A stretch of 64,000 nt of DNA from Escherichia coli (GCF_044324875.1 NZ_CP172188.1); one strand, 5' to 3'; shown: positions 4,197 through 63,375, counted from the first letter of the stretch. The notes: a model not told the origin generated them from the letters alone. Translations and numbers: made by a program.

Positions 4197-4301
4197 AATA
4201 CTGACTGTTGCGCCCTGGCATTATCGTGGGGTATATTTCTACGGCACCTTAGAAAAACGGGTGCCGGGATTGGAACCCCGGATAATGCAAAAGGCGACAC
4301 A

Positions 4302-4323
4302 GACGCCGAAAGCGTCTTTTCTT
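4302..4323 (+). terminator. rho-independent terminator candidate
   Basis: gacgc-cgaaa-gcgtc hairpin followed by ttttctt. Confidence 0.5.
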
Positions 4324-4329
4324 GTGTCA

Positions 4330-4508
4330 TGCCATCGCACAGCCATACGTAGCGTTTAGCTCAGAGATCAATGGTAGTGCTGGCTGGGCTGCCGAAAGGC
4401 AGGCCGGTTCCCTTTTGCGCCGGTAGTTCCAACCCAGTCAGTGCTACCGCCATTGAGATTGGAACCTCACGCGGTAGCTCCTTAAATTAGCAAAAGGAGG
4501 CTGCCAAT
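4330..4508 (+). promoter_or_regulatory. structured leader of antirepressor module A (differs from the leaders of modules B/C/D)
   Basis: Hairpins ctgcc-gaaa-ggcag (~4388-4401) and gttccaa...ttggaac (~4415-4458); AGGAGG before the ATG at 4509. Confidence 0.3.
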
Positions 4509-4724
4509 ATGGCTACTATCCCTACCCCAACTCATTCTGAATTTATCTGGCGTTTCTATTCCTGCCAAAAACACCTGTATATCTGCGTCATGGCTGCAAC
4601 CGAAGCAGAAGCTCGTTCATACCTTCCTGAAGAACCCTGCATTTTTGCCGCACGCTTCACTCTTGATGCGATGGAGATCCTCAATTACTGGAATCTGCCA
4701 ATGAACTGCGTGGAGGTGCACTGA
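4509..4724 (+). CDS. small protein upstream of the antirepressor (Icd-position ORF, module A)
   Basis: 71 aa; stop overlaps the ATG of the next gene (TGATG); paralogous to 28238-28462, 38110-38325 and 63376-63600. Confidence 0.6.
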   Translation: MATIPTPTHSEFIWRFYSCQKHLYICVMAATEAEARSYLPEEPCIFAARFTLDAMEILNYWNLPMNCVEVH

Positions 4725-5665
4725 TGAATCTGTCCATCTCTCAAAAAGCGACAATGACCAGCATTGAGATCGCGGAACTGGTAGGAAGTCGCCAAGATAG
4801 TGTGAAGAGAACTATCGAAACACTGGCTAAAAAGAGTGTGATCCAATTTCCACAATCTGTGGAAATTGAAAATAAACAATCAGTTGGCCCTCGTCGATTT
4901 TCCAAGGCTTACATCTTTGAAGGCGAACAAGGCAAGCGCGATAGTATCATTGTCGTCGCACAGCTCTCTCCGGAATTCACCGCCCGGCTGGTGGACCGCT
5001 GGCGCGAACTGGAGAATGCCAGGGGACCGTTAAAATCAAAAGCCGAAATCCTGGCTGAAATGGCGCAAATGCATCTTGAGCATGAACGCCGGATCAACGC
5101 CGTAAATGCCCAGGTAGCCGAGGTATCAGCACAAGTATCGATGGTCGCTGAAACACTCGAGCAAATAAAGAAAGGCAATATGCCGGAAGGCTACATTGGC
5201 TACCGCCAGCTGGCGGCGAAATGCGGCCTGACTGAAGCCAAATGTCGCAACCTGGTTAACGCTTACCGGATACCCACTGATACGCATGAGTTTTTGACTC
5301 CCGACGGTTTGCTTGCGCGACGCTCAATTGTGGCCCTGGCCCCCTTCCGGAAAGCCTTTAAGCAGGTTATGTCGGAGGCAGAACCACGCAACAAACGCTG
5401 GTATCATCCAAAGATGGGGATGTTTCAGGCAATCCACCATCCTGTGCCTGAAAGTCCAAAGGCAAACCTGTCGTTGCATACCGCCAGAGAGAGGATTAAA
5501 ACAGGGTATGCAATCGTATGCCGTCGAGCATCTTGGCCTGAAGGTGTATGGGTATGGCCCGAAGGTGGATCACGAAAGCACTGGCGCACTATCCGGGATG
5601 GGAAAATCCATGCGATTGATTTAGCTCCAGAGGATGTTGTTGCTACGGACTGGATTGTTAGTTAA
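4724..5665 (+). CDS. phage antirepressor-type protein (Rha-like N-terminal domain plus conserved C-terminal domain), module A
   Basis: 313 aa; N-terminus ...MTSIEIAELVGSRQDSVKRTIETL... resembles the Rha regulatory domain; C-terminal ~180 aa nearly identical to the module B and C proteins. Confidence 0.6.
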   Translation: MNLSISQKATMTSIEIAELVGSRQDSVKRTIETLAKKSVIQFPQSVEIENKQSVGPRRFSKAYIFEGEQGKRDSIIVVAQLSPEFTARLVDRWRELENARGPLKSKAEILAEMAQMHLEHERRINAVNAQVAEVSAQVSMVAETLEQIKKGNMPEGYIGYRQLAAKCGLTEAKCRNLVNAYRIPTDTHEFLTPDGLLARRSIVALAPFRKAFKQVMSEAEPRNKRWYHPKMGMFQAIHHPVPESPKANLSLHTARERIKTGYAIVCRRASWPEGVWVWPEGGSRKHWRTIRDGKIHAIDLAPEDVVATDWIVS

Positions 5666-5673
5666 TTACTGTT

Positions 5674-5695
5674 GCCCCGGCCTGTCCGGGGCTTT
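5674..5695 (+). terminator. conserved hairpin / terminator after the antirepressor gene
   Basis: ccccgg-cctgt-ccgggg followed by cttt; the same element follows modules B and C. Confidence 0.5.
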
Positions 5696-5724: not shown

Positions 5725-6009
5725 ATGAAGAAAATAGATTTCACTTACTCTGCTGCCACAATCCAGCGACGTTTCAGTCTCATAAGGGAAGTGGAACTAT
5801 CAAAAAACTGGTATCAAATTCTACTGGATGAAGAGTTTTCACTGATGGTTATAGCAGAAAAATTGGCTATGCCGAATGACCGGCACAAGGTCATAGCCAG
5901 CCTGGATCTGGTGACAAACAGATACTGGGAATCCGAGGAACTACTTGAAGTTGGCTTGATACGCGAGATGATAGAACAGGCTGTTCCCCTCCACTTACAG
6001 CAACCATAA
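5725..6009 (+). CDS. hypothetical protein (94 aa)
   Basis: ORF at the start of an AT-rich segment; no recognisable motif. Confidence 0.4.
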   Translation: MKKIDFTYSAATIQRRFSLIREVELSKNWYQILLDEEFSLMVIAEKLAMPNDRHKVIASLDLVTNRYWESEELLEVGLIREMIEQAVPLHLQQP

Positions 6010-6145
6010 TTGAAAGGTCTTAACGATAGTCTGCCACGAATAGTTACTTTCACTGCCTAAAGTTATTTAATTGCATTACAAAGTGTAAATTAGTAACATT
6101 AGAATCTCACACAGCACTATAACTATATGTTTTTTATGTAAAAGG

Positions 6146-6505
6146 ATGATAATCGTGGCTACTAAAATTAAACTTGAAAACCCTCAAACTGGCGAATCAA
6201 TCACCGGTTTTTATGGTTTTTCCTGGACTACATTCTTGTTTGGTGCTTTTCCAGCTTTGTTCAGGAAAGACTTTATAACTTTTATTGGGGTATTCGTAGT
6301 GATGCTGATACTGGCATTCCTCACAGCCGGAATTGGCCCGTGGATTGCCTCATTTATCTGGGCGTTCATGTATAATAAATATTTCACCGTAAATAAGATA
6401 AAACAAGGCTTCATTTTTGCTGGTTCTCACACAGAAAATGAGTTGGCTGCTAGCAAGCTAGGATTGTCATTAAATCAAAACAACTGCAAAACTATTACCG
6501 AGTAA
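6146..6505 (+). CDS. small inner-membrane protein (two hydrophobic segments)
   Basis: 119 aa; hydrophobic stretches FSWTTFLFGAFPALF and FIGVFVVMLILAFLTAGIGPWIASFIWAF; alternative GTG start at 6155 has better Shine-Dalgarno spacing. Confidence 0.45.
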   Translation: MIIVATKIKLENPQTGESITGFYGFSWTTFLFGAFPALFRKDFITFIGVFVVMLILAFLTAGIGPWIASFIWAFMYNKYFTVNKIKQGFIFAGSHTENELAASKLGLSLNQNNCKTITE

Positions 6506-6545
6506 TAGCCAAAAAGCAGGCTTAATAGTAAGCCTGCTATGTCAA

Positions 6546-7367
6546 TCACGAATCTCTCTGACAATTCAGAAACATAAACGCCCGCTTGTCTGTTAAATCC
6601 GTAACATAATACTCTCTCATGCCTGTAGGTTTTATTCTACGAGCATATACAAACTTATGAACTGGTTGTTTTTCCCCATAACTTACATCAGTCCTAAATT
6701 CATCAACCACGCTACCATCTTTTTCGACTTCCTTCCTCACCAGCTTATTTTCTAATGCTGGCTTTAATTCGTCCATGCCACTAAAAGCATCCTGGCCTGT
6801 ACTATTGCCTCGATTTCCGCGCGGCAAATCCCAGGAGAAATAAGTGCCATAGTCAGTAATCACACGATCCCAGACTCCGGTATCCCCCATATAGTTAGAG
6901 CGCTTTCCATTGTAGGTTACAGCCACTTTACAGGAGTACGTTTCTTCATTCCCTCCAGCCTTACTCGCTGTGGTTGCAGGGATATTTTGGATAGATGCGC
7001 TTACGTCATCTTGCGTTAATTCCTCAACTGGAGCAAATTCATATATGGGTGTGCCGAGGCTATTTAAATATAACTTATATCTAACCCTAAGCGCACTTCC
7101 ATCTGAGAATTCATACGTTCCCAGGCATTGGAGCTTATTTTTTTCTCTTATCTCATTGATCTGATAATAAGCATCAATTACAGAGATTGCTTCCTGATCG
7201 TCCTTCAGCAGTTCATTATAATCATCAATTAACATCTGTCTGGTTTTAGGGGCATTGCAGTCAATTTTGCTAAAATCATAAGCAAAGGCAAATGTGGGAA
7301 CAGAGAGAGCAACAACAGTAGCAAGTATTGTTGAGGAACATCTTTTTCCATTTTTTATAAAAAACAT
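6546..7367 (-). CDS. secreted / periplasmic protein of unknown function
   Basis: Start chosen at MFFIKNGKRCSSTILATVVALSVPTFAFA (signal-peptide-like, GGAG 8 nt upstream); the ORF track extends to 7430; AT-rich. Confidence 0.5.
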   Translation of the reverse strand: MFFIKNGKRCSSTILATVVALSVPTFAFAYDFSKIDCNAPKTRQMLIDDYNELLKDDQEAISVIDAYYQINEIREKNKLQCLGTYEFSDGSALRVRYKLYLNSLGTPIYEFAPVEELTQDDVSASIQNIPATTASKAGGNEETYSCKVAVTYNGKRSNYMGDTGVWDRVITDYGTYFSWDLPRGNRGNSTGQDAFSGMDELKPALENKLVRKEVEKDGSVVDEFRTDVSYGEKQPVHKFVYARRIKPTGMREYYVTDLTDKRAFMFLNCQRDS

Positions 7368-7607
7368 TTCATTAACTCCATACTTTACCATCTTAGCCGC
7401 GAGCGCGGTCCCTAAAACCATTAACTTCACTGCACCGTTCCTTCATGCAATCAAAATGACTTTTATGTTATAAAAATAATCAGCCAAATCAACATGATTT
7501 AGGCCAAATGCGTATTCCGCTCTATTCGATCACGGATTGGCATCGAAGTCCGATCAGCGATTCGCATCCATTCGATCAACCGGGAACTTAACTTTTTCTA
7601 CCGCTTT

Positions 7608-8363
7608 TTAACGCGTTTTTTCGCTGCTTTCCACTACCGGGGGATTTTTCCTCAGTGACTCTCCCTGAAGGACCACTCGGTGTGAGTTATGTACCAGTCT
7701 GTCCAGGATGGCATCTGCTGTTGTTGGGTTCTCCATCAGACCATGCCATTTATCTACCGGGAACTGGCTTACCACTATCGTGCTGCTTTGTCCGTAACGA
7801 TCCTCTATGAGCTCCAGAAGGTCATTACACTGGGCGTTACTTAACTGTTCCAGCCCCAGATCGTCCAGGATTAGAACCTGTATTTTTTGCAACTGTTTCA
7901 GATATTTCAGCCAGCTGCCATCAACACGTCCCTGAGCCAGTTGTTCCAGTAATCGCCCGGTTCTACAGTACCGGACGCTGTGTTTCTGTCGACATGCCTG
8001 TTCGCCCAGCGCATTGGCTATCCAGCTCTTGCCACATCCTGTCGGACCGGTTATCAGCAGGTTTTTCCTGTGGGTTATGTAGTGGCCGTTCAGCAGTTCT
8101 CTCATCTGTTCAGCCCGCAGACCTCTTGAGGCCGGATAGCGCAGCCCTTCCGGTGTTGCCTGGTATTTCAGGCCGGCATTTTTTCTCAACCGTGCCACAC
8201 GGCTGTTTTCCCTGCTCAGAAGCTCGTCATCAACCAGCAGCGTCAGCCTTTCCTCGAACGACAGTTCGTCGTAGGTCTGAGGCGTTTCCCGCTGCCGTAT
8301 CAGGCTCCCGGCCATCGCCGGGAGTTTCAGTTGGGTCAGTTTGTTTAACAGGTTATCACTCAT
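7608..8363 (-). CDS. istB: IS21-family transposition helper ATPase IstB
   Basis: Walker A GPTGCGKS, DExx-like LILDDLG; start set at MSDNLL with AAGGAA Shine-Dalgarno; the ORF track extends upstream to 8606. Confidence 0.85.
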   Translation of the reverse strand: MSDNLLNKLTQLKLPAMAGSLIRQRETPQTYDELSFEERLTLLVDDELLSRENSRVARLRKNAGLKYQATPEGLRYPASRGLRAEQMRELLNGHYITHRKNLLITGPTGCGKSWIANALGEQACRQKHSVRYCRTGRLLEQLAQGRVDGSWLKYLKQLQKIQVLILDDLGLEQLSNAQCNDLLELIEDRYGQSSTIVVSQFPVDKWHGLMENPTTADAILDRLVHNSHRVVLQGESLRKNPPVVESSEKTR

Positions 8364-8379
8364 ACTGTTGTTCCTTCTG

Positions 8380-9915
8380 TCAGTGGTAGTAGCCCGGACC
8401 ACGCAGGTTTTCATGCTCTGAAGCATATGCCGGATGTTGTTCGCCCTGGCGGGATAATGGAAGCTCCAGGTTCTCCCGATGGTGACGCAGCAGATTGTCG
8501 ATAAAGCGTCTGTCAGGGGCGTTATAGTGCAGGGCAACGTAACAGGCCTTTTCCAGCCGTTCCGGGCCGTATTTTTTCTGAAGTGCCAGCAGCCCCAGAA
8601 CTGCACGATAAGCCAGTTCCGGATGGGGTTTTGCCTTCAGCATGGATTCAACCACCCGGCCTGTGGACGGGCCCGTACGTTTTCCCTGCTCGATCAGGCG
8701 TTCCGGTGTCCATGTCCCGTGCTGCCGGTGGCGCTCTGGCATGTGAAGCGGATTGGTTGTGTGTTTATATTCATGTGTGCTGCGCGGATGTTGCGCCACA
8801 CACTGCCCCTTGTGCCAGAGCTGTACCACCGACTGCCCCGCCTTCAGTGACAGACGCTGACCGACCAGTTCGTGTGGAACGGAGTACCAGTGACGGGCAT
8901 ATTCAACGTGGTAGTCAGGGCCAACCTTCACAGCTTTGTATTCCGTGTATTCATAAGGTGCCAGAGGCAGCGGAGAGAGTGCTGGCGCATCCAGTATGCG
9001 GAAGCGTTCTGCACGGGTTTGATTGCCGTACCCCTTCATTGGCCGGTTATTCATGTCTGTCAGTAACTCCCTAAGGCGCGCATTCAGCGCCCTGAGCGTG
9101 TGGAAGGTTTCATTACGGATGCGGGCAAGAAGCCATCGTTCAACGATGAGGACGCCGTTTTCTGCTTTTGGTTTATCTTTAGGTTTGCGTGGTCGGGCCG
9201 GGATGATAACCGTGCCATAGTGCTCAGCCAGTGCCTGATAACTGTCGTTGATGACAGGCTCATATCGATCGGCCTTTTTCACTGCGCTTCTGAGGTTATC
9301 GGGGATGAGCAGCTTCGGTACGCCGCCCAGGAAGGTCAGGCAACGGCTGTGGGCATTTAACCATGACATCATGTCCTGACCTTCGCACGCTTCAACGTAG
9401 GTATAGTTGGACGCCCCCATTACGGCCACGAAGATTGCCACGCGGCGTATCTCACCGGTGTCCGGATTAATAACAGGAACCGTAGGACCACAGAAGTCGA
9501 TAAAAAGCTTTTCGCCGGCACGATGCTCCTGGCGCATGGAGAGACGTCGCGTTTTTTTCCACTCCCGGTAGCAACGGCAGAAGTGCGAGTATCCCATCGC
9601 TTTGTTACCCGCCTGTGCCTTGTATTCCATCCACAACAGTTGCCGCGTCACACCTGGTTTTCTCATTTCCGTATCGAAGTACAACATGTCAGGCATTACA
9701 AGCTCTGATGCAAAGGTGTCTTTGGGCGGAAAAATGAGTTTCTCCAGCGTGTCATGGGATATATCAGCAGGTAATGGCCATGACAGAGAAGAGGCTTTGA
9801 AGCGGGCAAGAACCTCAAAAACGGTTGAGGCGCTGATGTGTAACGTCAGTCCGATACAACGGTTAGTCAGCTTCTTGTCGAACTTGAGCTGAAGGATCTT
9901 AAAACAGGTTTCCAT
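8380..9915 (-). CDS. istA: IS21-family transposase IstA
   Basis: ~511 aa from METCF... (AGGAG Shine-Dalgarno); N-terminal HTH and a DDE-type core; the ORF track extends to 10026. Confidence 0.85.
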   Translation of the reverse strand: METCFKILQLKFDKKLTNRCIGLTLHISASTVFEVLARFKASSLSWPLPADISHDTLEKLIFPPKDTFASELVMPDMLYFDTEMRKPGVTRQLLWMEYKAQAGNKAMGYSHFCRCYREWKKTRRLSMRQEHRAGEKLFIDFCGPTVPVINPDTGEIRRVAIFVAVMGASNYTYVEACEGQDMMSWLNAHSRCLTFLGGVPKLLIPDNLRSAVKKADRYEPVINDSYQALAEHYGTVIIPARPRKPKDKPKAENGVLIVERWLLARIRNETFHTLRALNARLRELLTDMNNRPMKGYGNQTRAERFRILDAPALSPLPLAPYEYTEYKAVKVGPDYHVEYARHWYSVPHELVGQRLSLKAGQSVVQLWHKGQCVAQHPRSTHEYKHTTNPLHMPERHRQHGTWTPERLIEQGKRTGPSTGRVVESMLKAKPHPELAYRAVLGLLALQKKYGPERLEKACYVALHYNAPDRRFIDNLLRHHRENLELPLSRQGEQHPAYASEHENLRGPGYYH

Positions 9916-10307
9916 AGTGCTCCTGGATTTTCTCTTTCTGGACATTGACGTCTCCACTGGTTTAAACACGGCAATGGAGACTGTGGTGAAAAGAGTTAAT
10001 TCCCGGAGTGACTGGCAGGATGCCAATCAATGATCGGAAGCATGCCAAATCGTGATCGATTGTGATGCCAAACTGTGATCGGAGATGGATGCCAAATCAT
10101 GATCGATTCGAATGCCAAACTGCGATCGATTCAGATGCCATTTTGCAGCCAAATTTCTGTCAAAAAATAAAATCCACAAAAAGTGGTTGACACTATTTTG
10201 GAAATCACAAACTGCACATAATCCATCGCGCTAACGGCTCCCGTTGAAGGTTCTTTTGACGATTAACTTTCAGCCGAAGCGCGGTAGGGAGTCATAACGC
10301 CAAAGCA

Positions 10308-12342: not shown

Positions 12343-13525
12343 TTTCCTGAAAAACCAGGACGGGCGCTATATCACTGACGGCCTGTCCTCTAAGGACTTC
12401 ACGCGTTTATTCGACCTTATCAGGAAAGAACAAACCCGTAAGCGCCGGCAAGCTCACCGGACGCTGACGCCAGGTAGACTGAGGAACAAATCCGCCGAAG
12501 ATATTCTCAAGTTAGGGAAGAAAAAAGGCGGCACGTTCTTCACGCGAGACGACCTGAAAGGTTTCGAAAAGCTACGGAGTAAAACGCGCGAAAAATATGA
12601 CAGCAAGACGGCTGGCATCACATACGCCCAGCTGGTGGCATCCAGCCAGGCAATCGATATTAAGCGTGCAAATAACGCCGTGGATGACGGATCTGGTATC
12701 AAAAGAGCTACACCCGTATCTCTTCGCCACAATGTGATTAATATCCGCGTAGAAGCATCGGATATATCCGTCCACCAGCACCATATCGTCCGGATACGCT
12801 TTGAAGAATGGGATCAGATGGTTGATGATATCGCAGAAGACGATAAATCAGCTCTCAAAATCACTAAATCACTGTGCGCCGGGCGAGTGTCTTTCGATTG
12901 TGACTGTGGTCGTCATCAATACTGGTATCGTTACATCGCCACTGCGGGTAACTTTGCCCTGGCACCGCCAAAAGAATACGCCTATCCAAAAGTTCGCAAC
13001 CCGAAGCTGCAAGGCGTCGCCTGTAAACACGTGATCCACTCAATGACGCGGTTACAGTCCGCCAGTTGGCAAATGAGTATTGCTCGTGCGCTACAAAAGG
13101 CTGCAACGCAAATTGCATTTGGTGACGATCGCCGCCGTACAACCAAACACTTCTCAAAAGAAGACGAGAAGGAGTTTAATCGCAATCGTAGCAGTAAAAC
13201 AAACGTTGAAGCCGCCAAACGCGAATGGAGGCTCTATCAGAAGCGCCAGGCAGCTTTAAGTACAAAACTGGCAAAGGACAACGGCAATATCGACAAGCTA
13301 CGTGACCAATTGACCAGGGCCAGAAAGTTGTCAGACGCACAGAAAAAACGGGCGGCTGCAAAAGAAGCGGCCTTGCAACGTGAGAAACAGAAAAATAAGG
13401 AACTTCAGCAACGCCTTGCCGATCAGTTCGCACTGAAGAAGCAGGCGTTCATTGATGCGCTTGTCATGGCTGGAACACCACCAGCACAAGCTGAAAAAAT
13501 GTTCATGGAGTACATAAAAAATTAA
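12335..13525 (+). CDS. hypothetical protein with a SWIM-like zinc-finger motif and a basic coiled-coil C-terminus
   Basis: CAGRVSFDCDCGRHQ...GVACKHVIH (CxC...CxH spacing); Lys/Arg/Glu/Gln-rich C-terminal 130 aa. Confidence 0.5.
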   Translation: MPDFLKNQDGRYITDGLSSKDFTRLFDLIRKEQTRKRRQAHRTLTPGRLRNKSAEDILKLGKKKGGTFFTRDDLKGFEKLRSKTREKYDSKTAGITYAQLVASSQAIDIKRANNAVDDGSGIKRATPVSLRHNVINIRVEASDISVHQHHIVRIRFEEWDQMVDDIAEDDKSALKITKSLCAGRVSFDCDCGRHQYWYRYIATAGNFALAPPKEYAYPKVRNPKLQGVACKHVIHSMTRLQSASWQMSIARALQKAATQIAFGDDRRRTTKHFSKEDEKEFNRNRSSKTNVEAAKREWRLYQKRQAALSTKLAKDNGNIDKLRDQLTRARKLSDAQKKRAAAKEAALQREKQKNKELQQRLADQFALKKQAFIDALVMAGTPPAQAEKMFMEYIKN

Positions 13526-13526
13526 C

Positions 13527-13552
13527 AAAGGTGGGTTTATCCCACCTTTTTA
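13527..13552. terminator. bidirectional terminator between convergent genes
   Basis: aggtggg-tttat-cccacct flanked by A and T runs. Confidence 0.5.
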
Positions 13553-14277
13553 TTAGCATCGCATTTAATTTTTTCAAGTGAATCAGAAAGCTTTGAGAGA
13601 ATCTCCTCAAGTGTCTCCCTGTCATTTGTATCACCCGAACGAAAAGATGAGTTTTTCACGGCAGTAAAAAATTCATAAAAATCATCCAACGAATTTAAGC
13701 TCTCACCTTTCTCTCTATATAATTTAATAACATGACGGATATCGCTATCCACACATTCAATCTGTTCCCTAACTTCTTCTACCTTTCTTTTTAATGATTC
13801 ATGTTCTTCTTTTTCTTTTTCAAGACGCTCTTCAACGTCTTTCCGTTTCTTAGTAAGATCATTAATGTCTCTGTTAATTTTTCTTACTTGTTCTTTTTTG
13901 TCTTCAATTTTATCTATCTCTCTCAATTTAGCGTATATTGTGCCAGTCACCATAGAAATTAGTAAAGTTAACATTGGGGCTAATATTGAAGCCACAACAC
14001 CATAAATAAAAGGCAAGACAAAATGAGCTACGAATGAGGGTACAAAAACATTCCCAAATAATGGAATCTTTTCCCCAACAAACACCATAGATAATGTATA
14101 CATAACATCATCTTTTGACTTCAACAATATAAATATATCTCGCCAGTTAGAAATTAAAAATGAAATAAAAATGTAGGCAAAAACCTTATTAAACAACTTA
14201 TCTTTTACAGCATCTTCTATCAGATTTTGGGCGGATGATTTTTCATTTTCCTTTTCTATTGATGAATCAGTGCTCAT
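13537..14277 (-). CDS. membrane protein with a long C-terminal coiled coil (unknown function)
   Basis: 246 aa; hydrophobic segments (FAYIFISFLISNW; VFVPSFVAHFVLPFIYGVVASILAPMLTLLISMV) then a K/E-rich heptad-like region; visibly AT-rich. Confidence 0.5.
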   Translation of the reverse strand: MSTDSSIEKENEKSSAQNLIEDAVKDKLFNKVFAYIFISFLISNWRDIFILLKSKDDVMYTLSMVFVGEKIPLFGNVFVPSFVAHFVLPFIYGVVASILAPMLTLLISMVTGTIYAKLREIDKIEDKKEQVRKINRDINDLTKKRKDVEERLEKEKEEHESLKRKVEEVREQIECVDSDIRHVIKLYREKGESLNSLDDFYEFFTAVKNSSFRSGDTNDRETLEEILSKLSDSLEKIKCDANKKVG

Positions 14278-14337
14278 ATAATCACCAAATATTTAAACCT
14301 TGATTTTATGTAAAATCGGCCCTCCAGACTGCCAAAC

Positions 14338-14718
14338 TTAAACACCAACTAGGCTTTCAAGAGGAATGCCAAACTGGGAATGTAAACGACGAATCATAGG
14401 TAACGTTAAATTTCGTGTCCCATTTAGCACTTCGTAAACACGATTTGACTTACCAATCGCCGGTTCCAGATCCTTCACGGTCAACCCTTGCTATTCCATA
14501 CGGGATTTAATGGCTTCAATAGGTGATGGCGGCTCAATTGGGTAATGTTTTTTCTCGTACTCCTCAATGAGAAGACACATAACCTCCAAGAAATTACCTT
14601 CCGGGGTGTTCGTTTCCGGTTCGTTATCGAACATCGGTTCTACCGCACGCAGTGCGGCCTCATAATCTTGTTCTGTACGGATAGTTTTAATGTTCATTAA
14701 TTCCAAAGGAAAGCCCAC
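14338..14718 (-). pseudogene. higA-like antitoxin gene (N-domain plus HTH) interrupted by an in-frame TAG
   Basis: 75-aa ORF ...IKSRME then TAG at 14491-14493; the same frame continues QGLTVKDLEPAIGKSNRVYEVLNGTRNLTLPMIRRLHSQFGIPLESLVGV to TAA at 14338, resembling the E. coli K-12 HigA C-terminal HTH. Confidence 0.45.
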
Positions 14719-14753
14719 TTGTTAAGTGGGCTTTTTGTATGTGTTTTACTATA

Positions 14754-15092
14754 TCAGGCTGCTTTTTTATTCAGGTTCCGCTGAGAAATAAATTTTTCAG
14801 CAGTATTGATACGACTTAACTCTTCCTGAACGCGCATGTCATTTTCGACTTCCCACAGGTCTACTGCGGTCTGGAGATTAATCCAAAAATCTACAGAAGT
14901 ATCGAATGCTTTTGCCAGGCGATATGCCATATCCATCGTTAGCTTACGATTATTATTAACAAGAGCACTTACGGTGTTACGATGAACATGAAGTATTTCT
15001 GCTAACTCGTTGATCTTCAGCTCTAACGGCTCCAGGTATTCGTACAGCAGGATATCACCTACGGTCGTCGGTTTTCTGGTTGCCTGTTTCAT
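14754..15092 (-). CDS. higA: HigA-family antitoxin (HTH), second TA pair
   Basis: KPTTVGDILLYEYLEPLELKINELAEILHVHRNTVSALVNNNRKLT...FWINLQTAVDLW matches the HigA antidote pattern. Confidence 0.7.
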   Translation of the reverse strand: MKQATRKPTTVGDILLYEYLEPLELKINELAEILHVHRNTVSALVNNNRKLTMDMAYRLAKAFDTSVDFWINLQTAVDLWEVENDMRVQEELSRINTAEKFISQRNLNKKAA

Positions 15093-15162
15093 TTTTTGCC
15101 CTTACTAGCGTGCGTATTAAGTGGACTCTGGTCAGAACCCGGTCCGTAACCGGGTATCTGTT

Positions 15163-15465
15163 TTAGTATTTGTGAGGGTCGAGATACAAGTCCTCGGCCT
15201 TTCCGTTAACCCACTTAAAAATTAACCTATATTGCTTATTCACCCTTACTGATGAATAGCCATTTAGCTTCCCTGACAGTTCCTCATACCGATTACCTGG
15301 TGGTGATCTTAAATCCTTACAGGTAGTTGCGGCATTGATAATGTCCAACTTCCGTGACAATGTCATATGAATATCAGGAGGTATCTTTCTATGTGGTGTT
15401 GAAAATTCAAAAAAATCATCAAGCCACGCATCCCTGAAATCCTTTATGTTAATTTTTTTGGTCAT
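15163..15465 (-). CDS. higB: HigB-like killer toxin, second TA pair
   Basis: ...DLRSPPGNRYEELSGKLNGYSSVRVNKQYRLIFKWVNGKAEDLYLDPHKY resembles the plasmid-killer (HigB) family; lies immediately upstream of the antitoxin. Confidence 0.65.
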   Translation of the reverse strand: MTKKINIKDFRDAWLDDFFEFSTPHRKIPPDIHMTLSRKLDIINAATTCKDLRSPPGNRYEELSGKLNGYSSVRVNKQYRLIFKWVNGKAEDLYLDPHKY

Positions 15466-15627
15466 TAGTCATTTGATCCTCCGTGATGATTACCGAATGC
15501 CATAACTATAGCGCACTGTTGCACTGTGCGCAAGTGCATTTTATGAATTCCCCCTCCTTCATCCAAAATCACAATCTCCCGAAAATCTTCCTTTCGATAC
15601 CTGACAGATCGACCTTTGAGGATGCTT

Positions 15628-27961: not shown

Positions 27962-27990
27962 TTGATCTTCCATGTTTTCAGGCTTATATT
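27962..27990 (+). promoter_or_regulatory. sigma70-like promoter of module B
   Basis: TTGATC - 17 bp - TATATT; identical sequence in module D and, reverse-complemented, in module C. Confidence 0.5.
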
Positions 27991-27996
27991 CACGCC

Positions 27997-28237
27997 GTTG
28001 CAGCAAATTCTGCGACCGGGTTTAGCAGCCTGAATGTACATGCGGACAACCGCAGATATCCGATATTGCGGTATTTTTGTGTCCGTAAAACCATGTTACG
28101 CCCGAATTATGGTGGGGCGTGATGGGGAGGCTTCGGCCTGCTGGTTTCATGTACGCCAGTCTGCTAACCCCGTCACGTCCTGCCACCCGTTTAGCAGCGG
28201 GTAGCAGGTTGTTAAACCTGTACATGAGGCCGTAACT
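27997..28237 (+). ncRNA. structured leader with an embedded c4-like antisense regulator and two target sites (module B)
   Basis: Elements TTAGCAG/GTACATG at 28022-28042 and 28191-28226 (the second abuts the GAGG Shine-Dalgarno) are complementary to CATGTAC/CTGCTAA at 28148-28167; the complementarity is kept by compensatory changes in modules C and D. Confidence 0.5.
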
Positions 28238-38325: not shown

Positions 38326-38566
38326 AGTTACGGCCTCATGTACAGGTTTAACAACCTGCTACCCGCTGTCAAACAGGTGGCAGGGCGTGACAGGGTTGAC
38401 AGACTGGCGTACATGAAACCAGCAGGCCGAAGCCTCCCCATCACGCCCCACCATAATTCGGGCGTAACGTGGTTTACGGACACAAAAATACCGCAATATC
38501 GGAAATCTGCGGATGTCCGCATGTACATTCAGGCTGTCAAACCTGGTCGCAGAATTTGCTACGACG
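38326..38566 (-). ncRNA. structured leader with a c4-like antisense regulator (module C)
   Basis: Minus-strand elements TTGACAG/GTACATG (targets) and CATGTAC/CTGTCAA (antisense) in the same arrangement as module B. Confidence 0.5.
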
Positions 38567-38571
38567 GCGTG

Positions 38572-38600
38572 AATATAAGCCTGAACATCTGGAAGATCAA
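38572..38600 (-). promoter_or_regulatory. sigma70-like promoter of module C
   Basis: Reverse complement of TTGATC-17-TATATT. Confidence 0.5.
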
Positions 38601-63100: not shown

Positions 63101-63129
63101 TTGATCTTCCATGTTTTCAGGCTTATATT
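63101..63129 (+). promoter_or_regulatory. sigma70-like promoter of module D
   Basis: TTGATC-17-TATATT, identical to module B. Confidence 0.5.
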
Positions 63130-63135
63130 CATGCC

Positions 63136-63375
63136 GTCGTAGCAAATTCTGCGACCAGGTTTGACAGCCTGAATGTTAGTGCGGACAACCGCAGATTTCC
63201 GATATTGCGGTATTTTTGTGTCCGTAAACCGCGTTACGCCCGAATTATGGTGGGGCGTGATGGGGAGGCTTCGGCCTGCTGGTTTCACTAACGCCAGTCT
63301 GTCAACCCTGTCACGTCCTGCCACCTGTTTGACAGCGGGTAGCAGGTTGTTAAACCTGTTAGTGAGGCCGTAACT
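63136..63375 (+). ncRNA. structured leader with a c4-like antisense regulator (module D)
   Basis: TTGACAG/GTTAGTG at 63161-63181 and 63329-63364; complementary CACTAAC/CTGTCAA at 63286-63305. Confidence 0.5.

Follow-up and report, generated by a model that had tools for sequence, protein, structure and literature searches.

The described systems closest to the locus treated here are the sim operon of phage P1 and the Imm/Sp pair of phage T4, in which a small inner-membrane protein and an envelope protein stop DNA injection. Escherichia phage D6, a P1-related plasmid prophage, carries three genes between ant and mat (orf81, orf80 and orf79; MF356679; Gilcrease & Casjens 2018), which were annotated as 'similar to P1 pmgF', 'similar to p492 of phage 121Q' and 'similar to P1 simB', respectively. 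A study of a D6-like plasmid that lacks simA and simC described variability 'in the vicinity of the simB gene' and already listed the simB homologue under superinfection exclusion (PMC6799933). Here we analysed 64,000 nucleotides of Escherichia coli DNA (NZ_CP172188.1; hereafter the window), which belong to a D6-like, P1-related phage-plasmid and hold this gene trio with order and orientation unchanged (open reading frames ORF1, ORF2 and ORF3; Table 1). The gene set and the SimB similarity are already known from the D6 annotation and PMC6799933, and ORF3, a fairly ordinary finding, varies the architecture of a kind of protein that is known but poorly understood. We add that ORF3 can be dissected into domains, that its barrel belongs to a rare family subject to shuffling, that the three genes assort independently of one another and that a deletion scar precedes ORF3, and we describe the context of a neighbouring insertion sequence (IS). 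We propose, with a probability of about 0.4, that ORF3 works in superinfection exclusion through a Sim-like block to phage entry.

ORF3 is the only gene of the trio with a functional lead. Its product shares 90% protein identity with D6 orf79 and begins with basic residues (K5, K8 and R9) followed by a 15-residue hydrophobic core and AFA↓YD, a site that fits the signal peptidase I pattern by sequence rule; the cleavable signal-peptide-like N-terminus claimed in a first-pass annotation of this DNA was recovered as an n-h-c pattern. The predicted signal peptide aligns with that of P1 SimB, and its residues 1-17 have a low predicted local distance difference test (pLDDT) score. Residues 8-116 of ORF3 align at 45% identity (E 3e-26) with residues 2-111 of SimB, that is, with all of SimB including its signal peptide. 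In tblastn searches SimB matched the window at E 1.9e-23, and, against phages, ORF3 found D6 orf79 and its residues 21-122 alone found P1 SimB. An AlphaFold2 (AF2) model of ORF3, built from 33 sequences (mean pLDDT 84), contains two domains. The linker between them scores below 50 in pLDDT at residues 119-137 and has the highest divergence of ORF3, and D6 carries 4 extra residues there. The C-domain bears the motif YFSWD-x3-GNRG(N/D)STG. Each domain is bracketed by a cysteine pair, of which C37/C81 is invariant or nearly so in 21 sequences and C146/C269 likewise across the family; this arrangement fits oxidative folding in the periplasm. Neither domain had a match in Pfam, NCBIfam, PADLOC or PDB sequences, and a Lactamase_B_2 match of ORF3 was dismissed as noise (16 bits, cut-off 27). 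Scans of all three proteins with Pfam, NCBIfam and PADLOC yielded nothing usable. Taken together, the sequence features suggest that ORF3 is a Sec-type precursor of a two-domain protein that is presumably periplasmic.

Superinfection exclusion is proposed for ORF3 because of the SimB homology, the export features, the gene neighbourhood and one co-occurrence with an Imm-type gene. ORF3 would be exported via Sec and cleaved after AFA, and the mature protein, once in the periplasm, would form two domains, each stabilised by a disulfide and linked flexibly to the other. There it might bind a component of the host envelope on which an incoming D6- or P1-type phage depends, or the injection apparatus of that phage, and the adsorbed phage would then be unable to deliver its DNA into the cytoplasm. 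One domain could give the target specificity and the other the common activity, a division of labour suggested by relatives that join the same barrel to different N-domains. On this proposal ORF3 would be expressed in the lysogen and would confer an exclusion phenotype. The likeness to the P1 sim operon lies in SimB as the homologue of the ORF3 N-domain, with the same cysteine pair and the same kind of signal peptide, and in the location of both on a P1-family phage-plasmid close to the immI region; in addition, all three P1 Sim proteins carry signal peptides, which supports an exclusion role. In a CRISPR interference (CRISPRi) screen, P1 simABC was non-essential and dispensable for lytic growth (PMC10695390), as expected of exclusion genes. 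Three arrangements in relatives also suggest exclusion. Other exported-protein cassettes (202 plus 130 amino acids, aa) occupy the same slot; in L007, a distant phage-plasmid, the homologue of ORF3 comes second in an operon of two genes for exported proteins, without ORF2, an arrangement that appears reminiscent of simABC; and a SimB-like gene is paired with an Imm_superinfect gene on Rop plasmids. This last pair was found on two metagenomic Rop-type small plasmids (L023 181-932 and L024 1098-1912), where the SimB-like gene is convergent with a gene for an Imm_superinfect plus SHOCT membrane protein (PF14373, 30.8 bits in L024), mirroring the arrangement of ORF3 and ORF2.

Several points weigh against exclusion by ORF3. 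To our knowledge, SimB is only a 'putative accessory' protein with no demonstrated function, and the exclusion protein characterised in the P1 papers of 1989-1990 is reportedly the product of orf2/SimC. With tblastn, SimC found nothing in the whole window, and SimA reached a best E of only 1.6, that is, no homologue. The three proteins had no significant match in PADLOC-DB 2.0 (best, ORF1 to MTase_II, E 0.012, 12.8 bits), the fold of ORF3 gave generic matches only, and SimB-like orphans also occur in ordinary chromosomal neighbourhoods. Furthermore, a promoter scan called none ahead of any of the three genes and found no strong promoter. ORF3 was also tried as a relative of SimC and rejected (BLASTP E 0.78; hhalign of the C-domain profile, probability 0.07%). 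Since the window holds neither SimC nor SimA, it does not encode a P1-type Sim system, and ORF3 at most works like one. The two loci differ in further respects: the SimB-like domain of ORF3 is fused to an unrelated beta-barrel, and P1 sim lies upstream of c4 with an Op51-type operator, whereas ORF3 lies after ant and is divergent from mat. The superinfection exclusion that the first-pass annotation had raised for exported or membrane cargo of this kind is thus partly supported: it gains from the full-length SimB homology of ORF3, and this support is limited by the absence of SimC and SimA and by the fact that the three genes form no functional trio. If ORF3 does exclude phages, this would be the first function for SimB-type proteins, 35 years after sim was sequenced. 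It would also establish a new family of periplasmic domains that act against the entry of phage DNA, and few Gram-negative mechanisms of this step are understood.

An exported two-domain protein might instead act on the host. We regard it as unlikely that ORF3 acts in the periplasm as an inhibitor or binding protein, shielding or modifying the host envelope (for example by inhibiting a lysozyme, transglycosylase or protease), and so contributes to lysogenic conversion with no specific phage exclusion; this role could overlap with exclusion if its target were the Sit transglycosylase of the incoming phage.

The ORF3 family is rare: a word-indexed search of 5.8 billion proteins returned 11 clusters, and an exhaustive HMMER scan of 1.84 billion representatives returned 29, with phage-plasmids and plasmids as hosts. 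SimB-like proteins are mostly stand-alone and 100-120 aa long, the barrel occurs alone in P0021 (145 aa), and it stands behind unrelated N-domains in P0009-P0011, P0015, P0023 and P0026. The two domains of ORF3 are thus separable and shuffled as modules. A more far-reaching proposal, which we hold to be speculative and rather improbable, is that the disulfide-bonded barrel (YFSWD..GNRGxSTG) is a common effector and that swappable N-domains (SimB-like, helical and others) set the phage or injection component that is recognised, in an undescribed modular class of periplasmic exclusion proteins. Such a class, if real, would explain why P1 keeps SimB beside SimC and would amount to a recombination-programmable entry block for phage-plasmids, possibly together with the convergent membrane protein ORF2. 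P0009, a protein with an alternative N-domain, was also compared with SimC by BLASTP and hhalign, and no relation was found.

The ratio of non-synonymous to synonymous change (dN/dS) was 0.23 for the whole ORF3 gene against D6 and 0.05 for the barrel against the variant in L004, where synonymous change is saturated; ORF3 is therefore under purifying selection. This bears on the view that the region is decaying, unexpressed junk DNA, for which one could cite its AT-richness, the lack of strong predicted promoters and the adjoining IS insertion and deletion scar upstream of ORF3. That view is now extremely improbable and was largely refuted by the selection analysis: none of the three ORFs is broken in D6 or in dozens of plasmids, database members that are identical or nearly so number in the hundreds, dN/dS lies far below 1 (with dS saturated for the C-domain), and confidence in the AF2 models is high. 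The first-pass annotation had named decay of the region to a remnant, with frameshifts in relatives, as fatal to its claim; this was looked for, and it is not so: relatives carry intact genes and dN/dS of ORF3 is 0.05-0.23. The three ORFs (94, 119 and 273 aa) lie at the coordinates that it had given and are not chance open frames; it had not given the strand of ORF3 (minus).

Table 1. Features of the three-gene region and its flanks, in coordinates of the window
Feature	Position	Strand	Description	Counterpart, context or basis
Antirepressor gene (immI), Rha-type	4724-5665		downstream of C4 RNA and icd-like gene	
GC-rich hairpin	5674..5692	+	GCCCCGG-CCTGT-CCGGGGC, then TTTAAC; directly past antirepressor stop	read from sequence
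ORF1	5725..6009	+	94 aa, acidic (isoelectric point 5.1), without signal peptide or transmembrane segment	D6 orf81
ORF2	6146..6505	+	119 aa; 116 aa from GTG 6155	D6 orf80
Hairpin between ORF2 and ORF3	6515..6538		AGCAGGCTTA-ATAG-TAAGCCTGCT; between convergent ORF2 and ORF3	terminator scan and sequence
ORF3	6546..7367	-	273 aa from ATG 7367, GGAG 8 nt upstream	D6 orf79
ORF3 C-domain	6549..6947	-	residues 141-273, all-beta barrel, rare, C146/C269	
ORF3 inter-domain linker	6948..7019	-	residues 117-140, disordered, variable length	
ORF3 N-domain	7020..7280	-	residues 30-116, SimB-like: one helix on a 4-stranded antiparallel sheet, C37/C81	
ORF3 signal peptide (predicted)	7281..7367	-	residues 1-29, MFFIKNGKRCSSTILATVVALSVPTFAFA, followed by YD; no lipobox	sequence rules
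ORF3 upstream region	7368..7508	-	putative sigma-70 promoter, AAGGA ribosome-binding site, GTG 7430	
ISSso4-like IS21-family element	~7509/7510-10147	-	istA 8380-10026, istB 7608-8606	ORF3-mat divergent intergenic region

The distribution of the three genes was compared among 82 D6-like plasmids from complete E. coli genomes. All three occur in 31, ORF2 and ORF3 without a matching ORF1 in about 6, and ORF1 only in about 45. The plasmid pEC213_2 (L014, NZ_CP061103.1) has ORF1 followed by genes for a 101-aa, a 361-aa and a dCTP-deaminase-like protein, and next to mat a minus-strand exported-protein pair (202 and 130 aa); p1_000533 has ORF1 with the same exported pair; ptetA keeps ORF2 and ORF3 in the absence of ant and ORF1; and NJWF01000014 has, between mat and ant, only an ORF3 with an alternative N-domain. 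Members of the trio assort independently of one another and so represent cargo of a variable slot, not one system. The ant-mat interval is a cargo slot whose position next to mat is repeatedly taken by exported proteins. We are highly confident of the descriptive findings: the genes are real and under selection, ORF3 joins a SimB-like domain to a new barrel, and the trio consists of three independently acquired, functional cargo genes. The terms 'unknown genes', 'exported protein' and 'lysogenic cargo' of the first-pass annotation hold. D6-like phage-plasmids are common in Shiga toxin-producing E. coli and Salmonella, with almost no recognised defence systems on them (bioRxiv 10.1101/2025.09.12.675607), and the ant-mat slot may house unrecognised exclusion or defence cargo of these elements. 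In the pEC213_2 slot, the cassette at L014 5673-7677 comprises the 101-aa protein, the 361-aa protein (a weak Peptidase_M48 match) and the dCTP-deaminase-like protein (PF22769, E 1e-30); it had no match in PADLOC 2.0 and is a possible candidate for nucleotide-depletion defence.

This assortment makes it very unlikely that the trio is a single system of one cytoplasmic, one inner-membrane and one periplasmic component, comparable to T4 Imm plus Sp. ORF2 and ORF3 do form a convergent pair with a shared hairpin in every SimB-type D6-like plasmid listed, and on a small plasmid an Imm_superinfect gene and a SimB-like gene converge. Yet ORF1 stands without ORF2 and ORF3 in about 45 of the 82 plasmids, L016 has ORF2 and ORF3 without ORF1 and ant, the ORF3 variant of L004 lacks both neighbours, the ORF3 homologue of L007 lacks ORF2, and ORF2 homologues are stand-alone chromosomal genes; moreover, ORF2 does not match Imm_superinfect. 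The likeness of T4 Imm (PF14373) and Sp to ORF2 and ORF3 is in concept only, as a membrane/periplasm pair, with no significant sequence similarity.

The position beside mat also raises the question of whether ORF3 serves the lytic cycle of the phage itself. Expressed together with mat or the late genes, it would act in the periplasm to aid lysis or to stop progeny from injecting into lysing cells or debris. ORF3 is divergent from mat, a maturation control gene, with which it shares the intergenic region, the homologue P0011 comes after spanin-like lysis genes in another phage-plasmid lineage, and the slot next to mat in L007 and L014 always carries exported proteins. However, unrelated cassettes replace the ORF3 gene in about half of the D6-like plasmids, so ORF3 is not a core lytic function, and the homologous P1 sim genes are non-essential; we consider a lytic role a minor possibility. 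In the phage-plasmid with P0011 (L008 5256-5859), the preceding 150-aa gene looks, from translations only, like an i-spanin, and an embedded +1-frame ORF with a lipobox-like LSGC suggests an o-spanin.

ORF1 is a small cytoplasmic protein of the PmgF family. It is 98% identical in protein sequence to D6 orf81 and matches phrog_7349 over positions 1-93 of its 94 residues, a full-length profile match (E 3.1e-53). It shares 42% identity with P1 PmgF (E 7e-6), or about 42% over 71 residues for P1 PmgF/P7 Upf52.1. The family alignment has 14 invariant columns, and ORF1 is predicted to be beta-rich. Within the PmgF/Upf52.1 family (phrog_7349/phrog_7522), P1 pmgF comes after the bplB late operon, whereas ORF1 comes after the antirepressor gene; and in SJ46 and RCS47 the PmgF-type domain is the N-terminus of a 198-210-aa protein, in contrast to the 94 aa of ORF1. 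P1 pmgF was non-essential in the CRISPRi screen (PMC10695390). The label 'transcriptional regulator' that ORF1 bears in some NCBI records was rejected, as it has no recognisable DNA-binding domain.

ORF2, a small basic protein of the inner membrane, was captured from a family that is widespread in bacteria. Its identity to D6 orf80 is 100%, and GTG 6155 is better spaced from an AAGGA ribosome-binding site, giving the 116 aa of the D6 annotation. The first-pass annotation had assigned it two hydrophobic segments; hydrophobic stretches are indeed present (residues 37-75, strong; about 21-38, weaker), and their number is two to three. Homologues fall into 183 clusters, mostly from proteobacterial chromosomes, where they are stand-alone genes amid housekeeping genes in ordinary contexts; proteins of 121Q-like jumbo phages are 54-57% identical, and homologues occur in Lactobacillus phages too. 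ORF2 matches phrog_4915, and no Pfam family reaches its cut-off with it. UniRef labels relatives of ORF2 as DUF2628, and size and hydrophobic pattern resemble those of PF10947, but this assignment was rejected: ORF2 gave no match, and the relatives P0047 and P0157 score 12.4 and 8.9 bits against a gathering score of 23. Imm_superinfect (PF14373) was also rejected, with no match for ORF2 and five relatives even at E <= 5, and the genuine member from L024 aligns with ORF2 over 40 hydrophobic residues only. For 'HrgC', the name of the 121Q homologue, no relevant literature was found. Between ORF2 and ORF3, the hairpin is followed by TTTTTGG on the minus strand and is a terminator for ORF3.

Upstream of its ATG, the ORF3 frame is open to ATG 7421 (291 aa) and GTG 7430 (294 aa), and the match to phrog_13054 starts from residue 22 of the longer ORF. 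GTG 7430 and the following 13-14 codons (VKLMVLGTALAAKM...KYG, window 7368-7430, minus strand) are in frame with ORF3. The 122 bp upstream of ORF3 (to 7509) resemble, at about 88% DNA identity, the beginning of the gene for the 202-aa exported protein in pEC213_2, covering its promoter region, its ribosome-binding site and its first 13-14 codons (VKLxVLGxALAA). This gene is intact in pEC213_2 (L014 8179-8787), and in L007 (5361-5990) a 47%-identical homologue directly precedes the ORF3 homologue. The comparison suggests that the D6/window lineage probably lost the 202-aa gene by an in-frame deletion, which would have left these codons as a remnant fused to ORF3; such a deletion would explain the in-frame upstream GTG and ATG starts and the conflicting annotations of 273, 291, 294 and 298 aa. 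The putative promoter of ORF3 consists of TTGATT (7492-7487), a 16-nt spacer and TAACAT (7470-7465), and was read by eye, not called by the scan.

Beyond the scar lies the IS21 element that the first-pass annotation had placed on this side of the genes, with an antirepressor module on the other; both flanks are as it had described, the element with istA, istB and a target-site duplication. Its proteins match IstB_IS21 (IstB) and rve and Mu-transpos_C_2 (IstA), and copies that are 100% identical elsewhere in E. coli are annotated as ISSso4 family. The element is flanked by the direct repeat GCCAAA(T) and has a clean junction relative to the uninterrupted plasmid pE2863-2. It is absent from 99.9%-identical plasmids, and the insertion is therefore recent. 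It has the orientation of ORF3 and lies 142 bp upstream of the ORF3 ATG and 17 bp upstream of the TTGATT-16-TAACAT promoter, and it lies between ORF3 and a perfect TTGACA (10158-10163, minus strand). The IS may weaken upstream promoter elements or supply read-through into ORF3, and may thus alter the expression of ORF3, mat or both.

The 2-kb stretch around the trio is 96% identical in DNA to D6 and 95-99.9% identical to about 30 plasmids of E. coli, which are 90-96 kb in size, and a further 24 kb of the window also matches those same plasmids. The local order in D6 is ref, c4/icd, antirepressor (orf82), orf81, orf80, orf79 (minus strand), mat and tail genes; RefSeq plasmids show the same order, with the label 'hypothetical protein (x3)', and the insertion between orf79 and mat, 142 bp from the ORF3 ATG, is the sole difference of the window from the D6-type order. 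At the protein level, the ORF3 linker is 4 residues shorter than in D6. The hairpin just past the antirepressor gene is a weak terminator-like element dividing the immI operon from ORF1, and it was missed by the terminator scan because its T-run is short. No match to the P1 C1 operator consensus was found in the whole window with up to 3 mismatches, and P1-type repressor control could therefore not be inferred. The stretch is AT-rich, as the first-pass annotation had noted, and belongs to the most AT-rich class of 1.8-kb segments: its GC content is 39.3% (5725-7509), that of the window as a whole is 47.0%, and only 1.4% of segments of this length have so low a value. The only other stretch that matches it in AT-richness lies at about 13050-15600 and, by synteny with D6, should hold orf73 and the HigA/RelE toxin-antitoxin genes.

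Two minor observations concern the antirepressor region. The antirepressor C-terminus (window 5423-5662, the last 60 residues or so) shows a weak similarity to the Tad2-like (anti-Thoeris) domain (11.5 bits, E 0.46), and at the equivalent position in L007 (6857-7186) a separate 108-aa protein scores 24.3 bits against a cut-off of 25; Tad2 was reported in 93% of D6-like elements (bioRxiv 10.1101/2025.09.12.675607). In addition, at Rfam gathering scores, four C4 antisense RNA genes were called in the 64-kb window, at 4367-4454 (+), 28105-28190 (+), 38373-38458 (-) and 63243-63328 (+), and c4-a1b1 elements at 27984-28036, 38526-38578 and 63123-63175, so that three of the four C4 genes are accompanied by a1/b1 targets; an isrK-like element lies at 4244-4322. 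In P1 the region examined has only one annotated c4, so the D6-like element appears to possess several loci for immI-type control of antirepressors.

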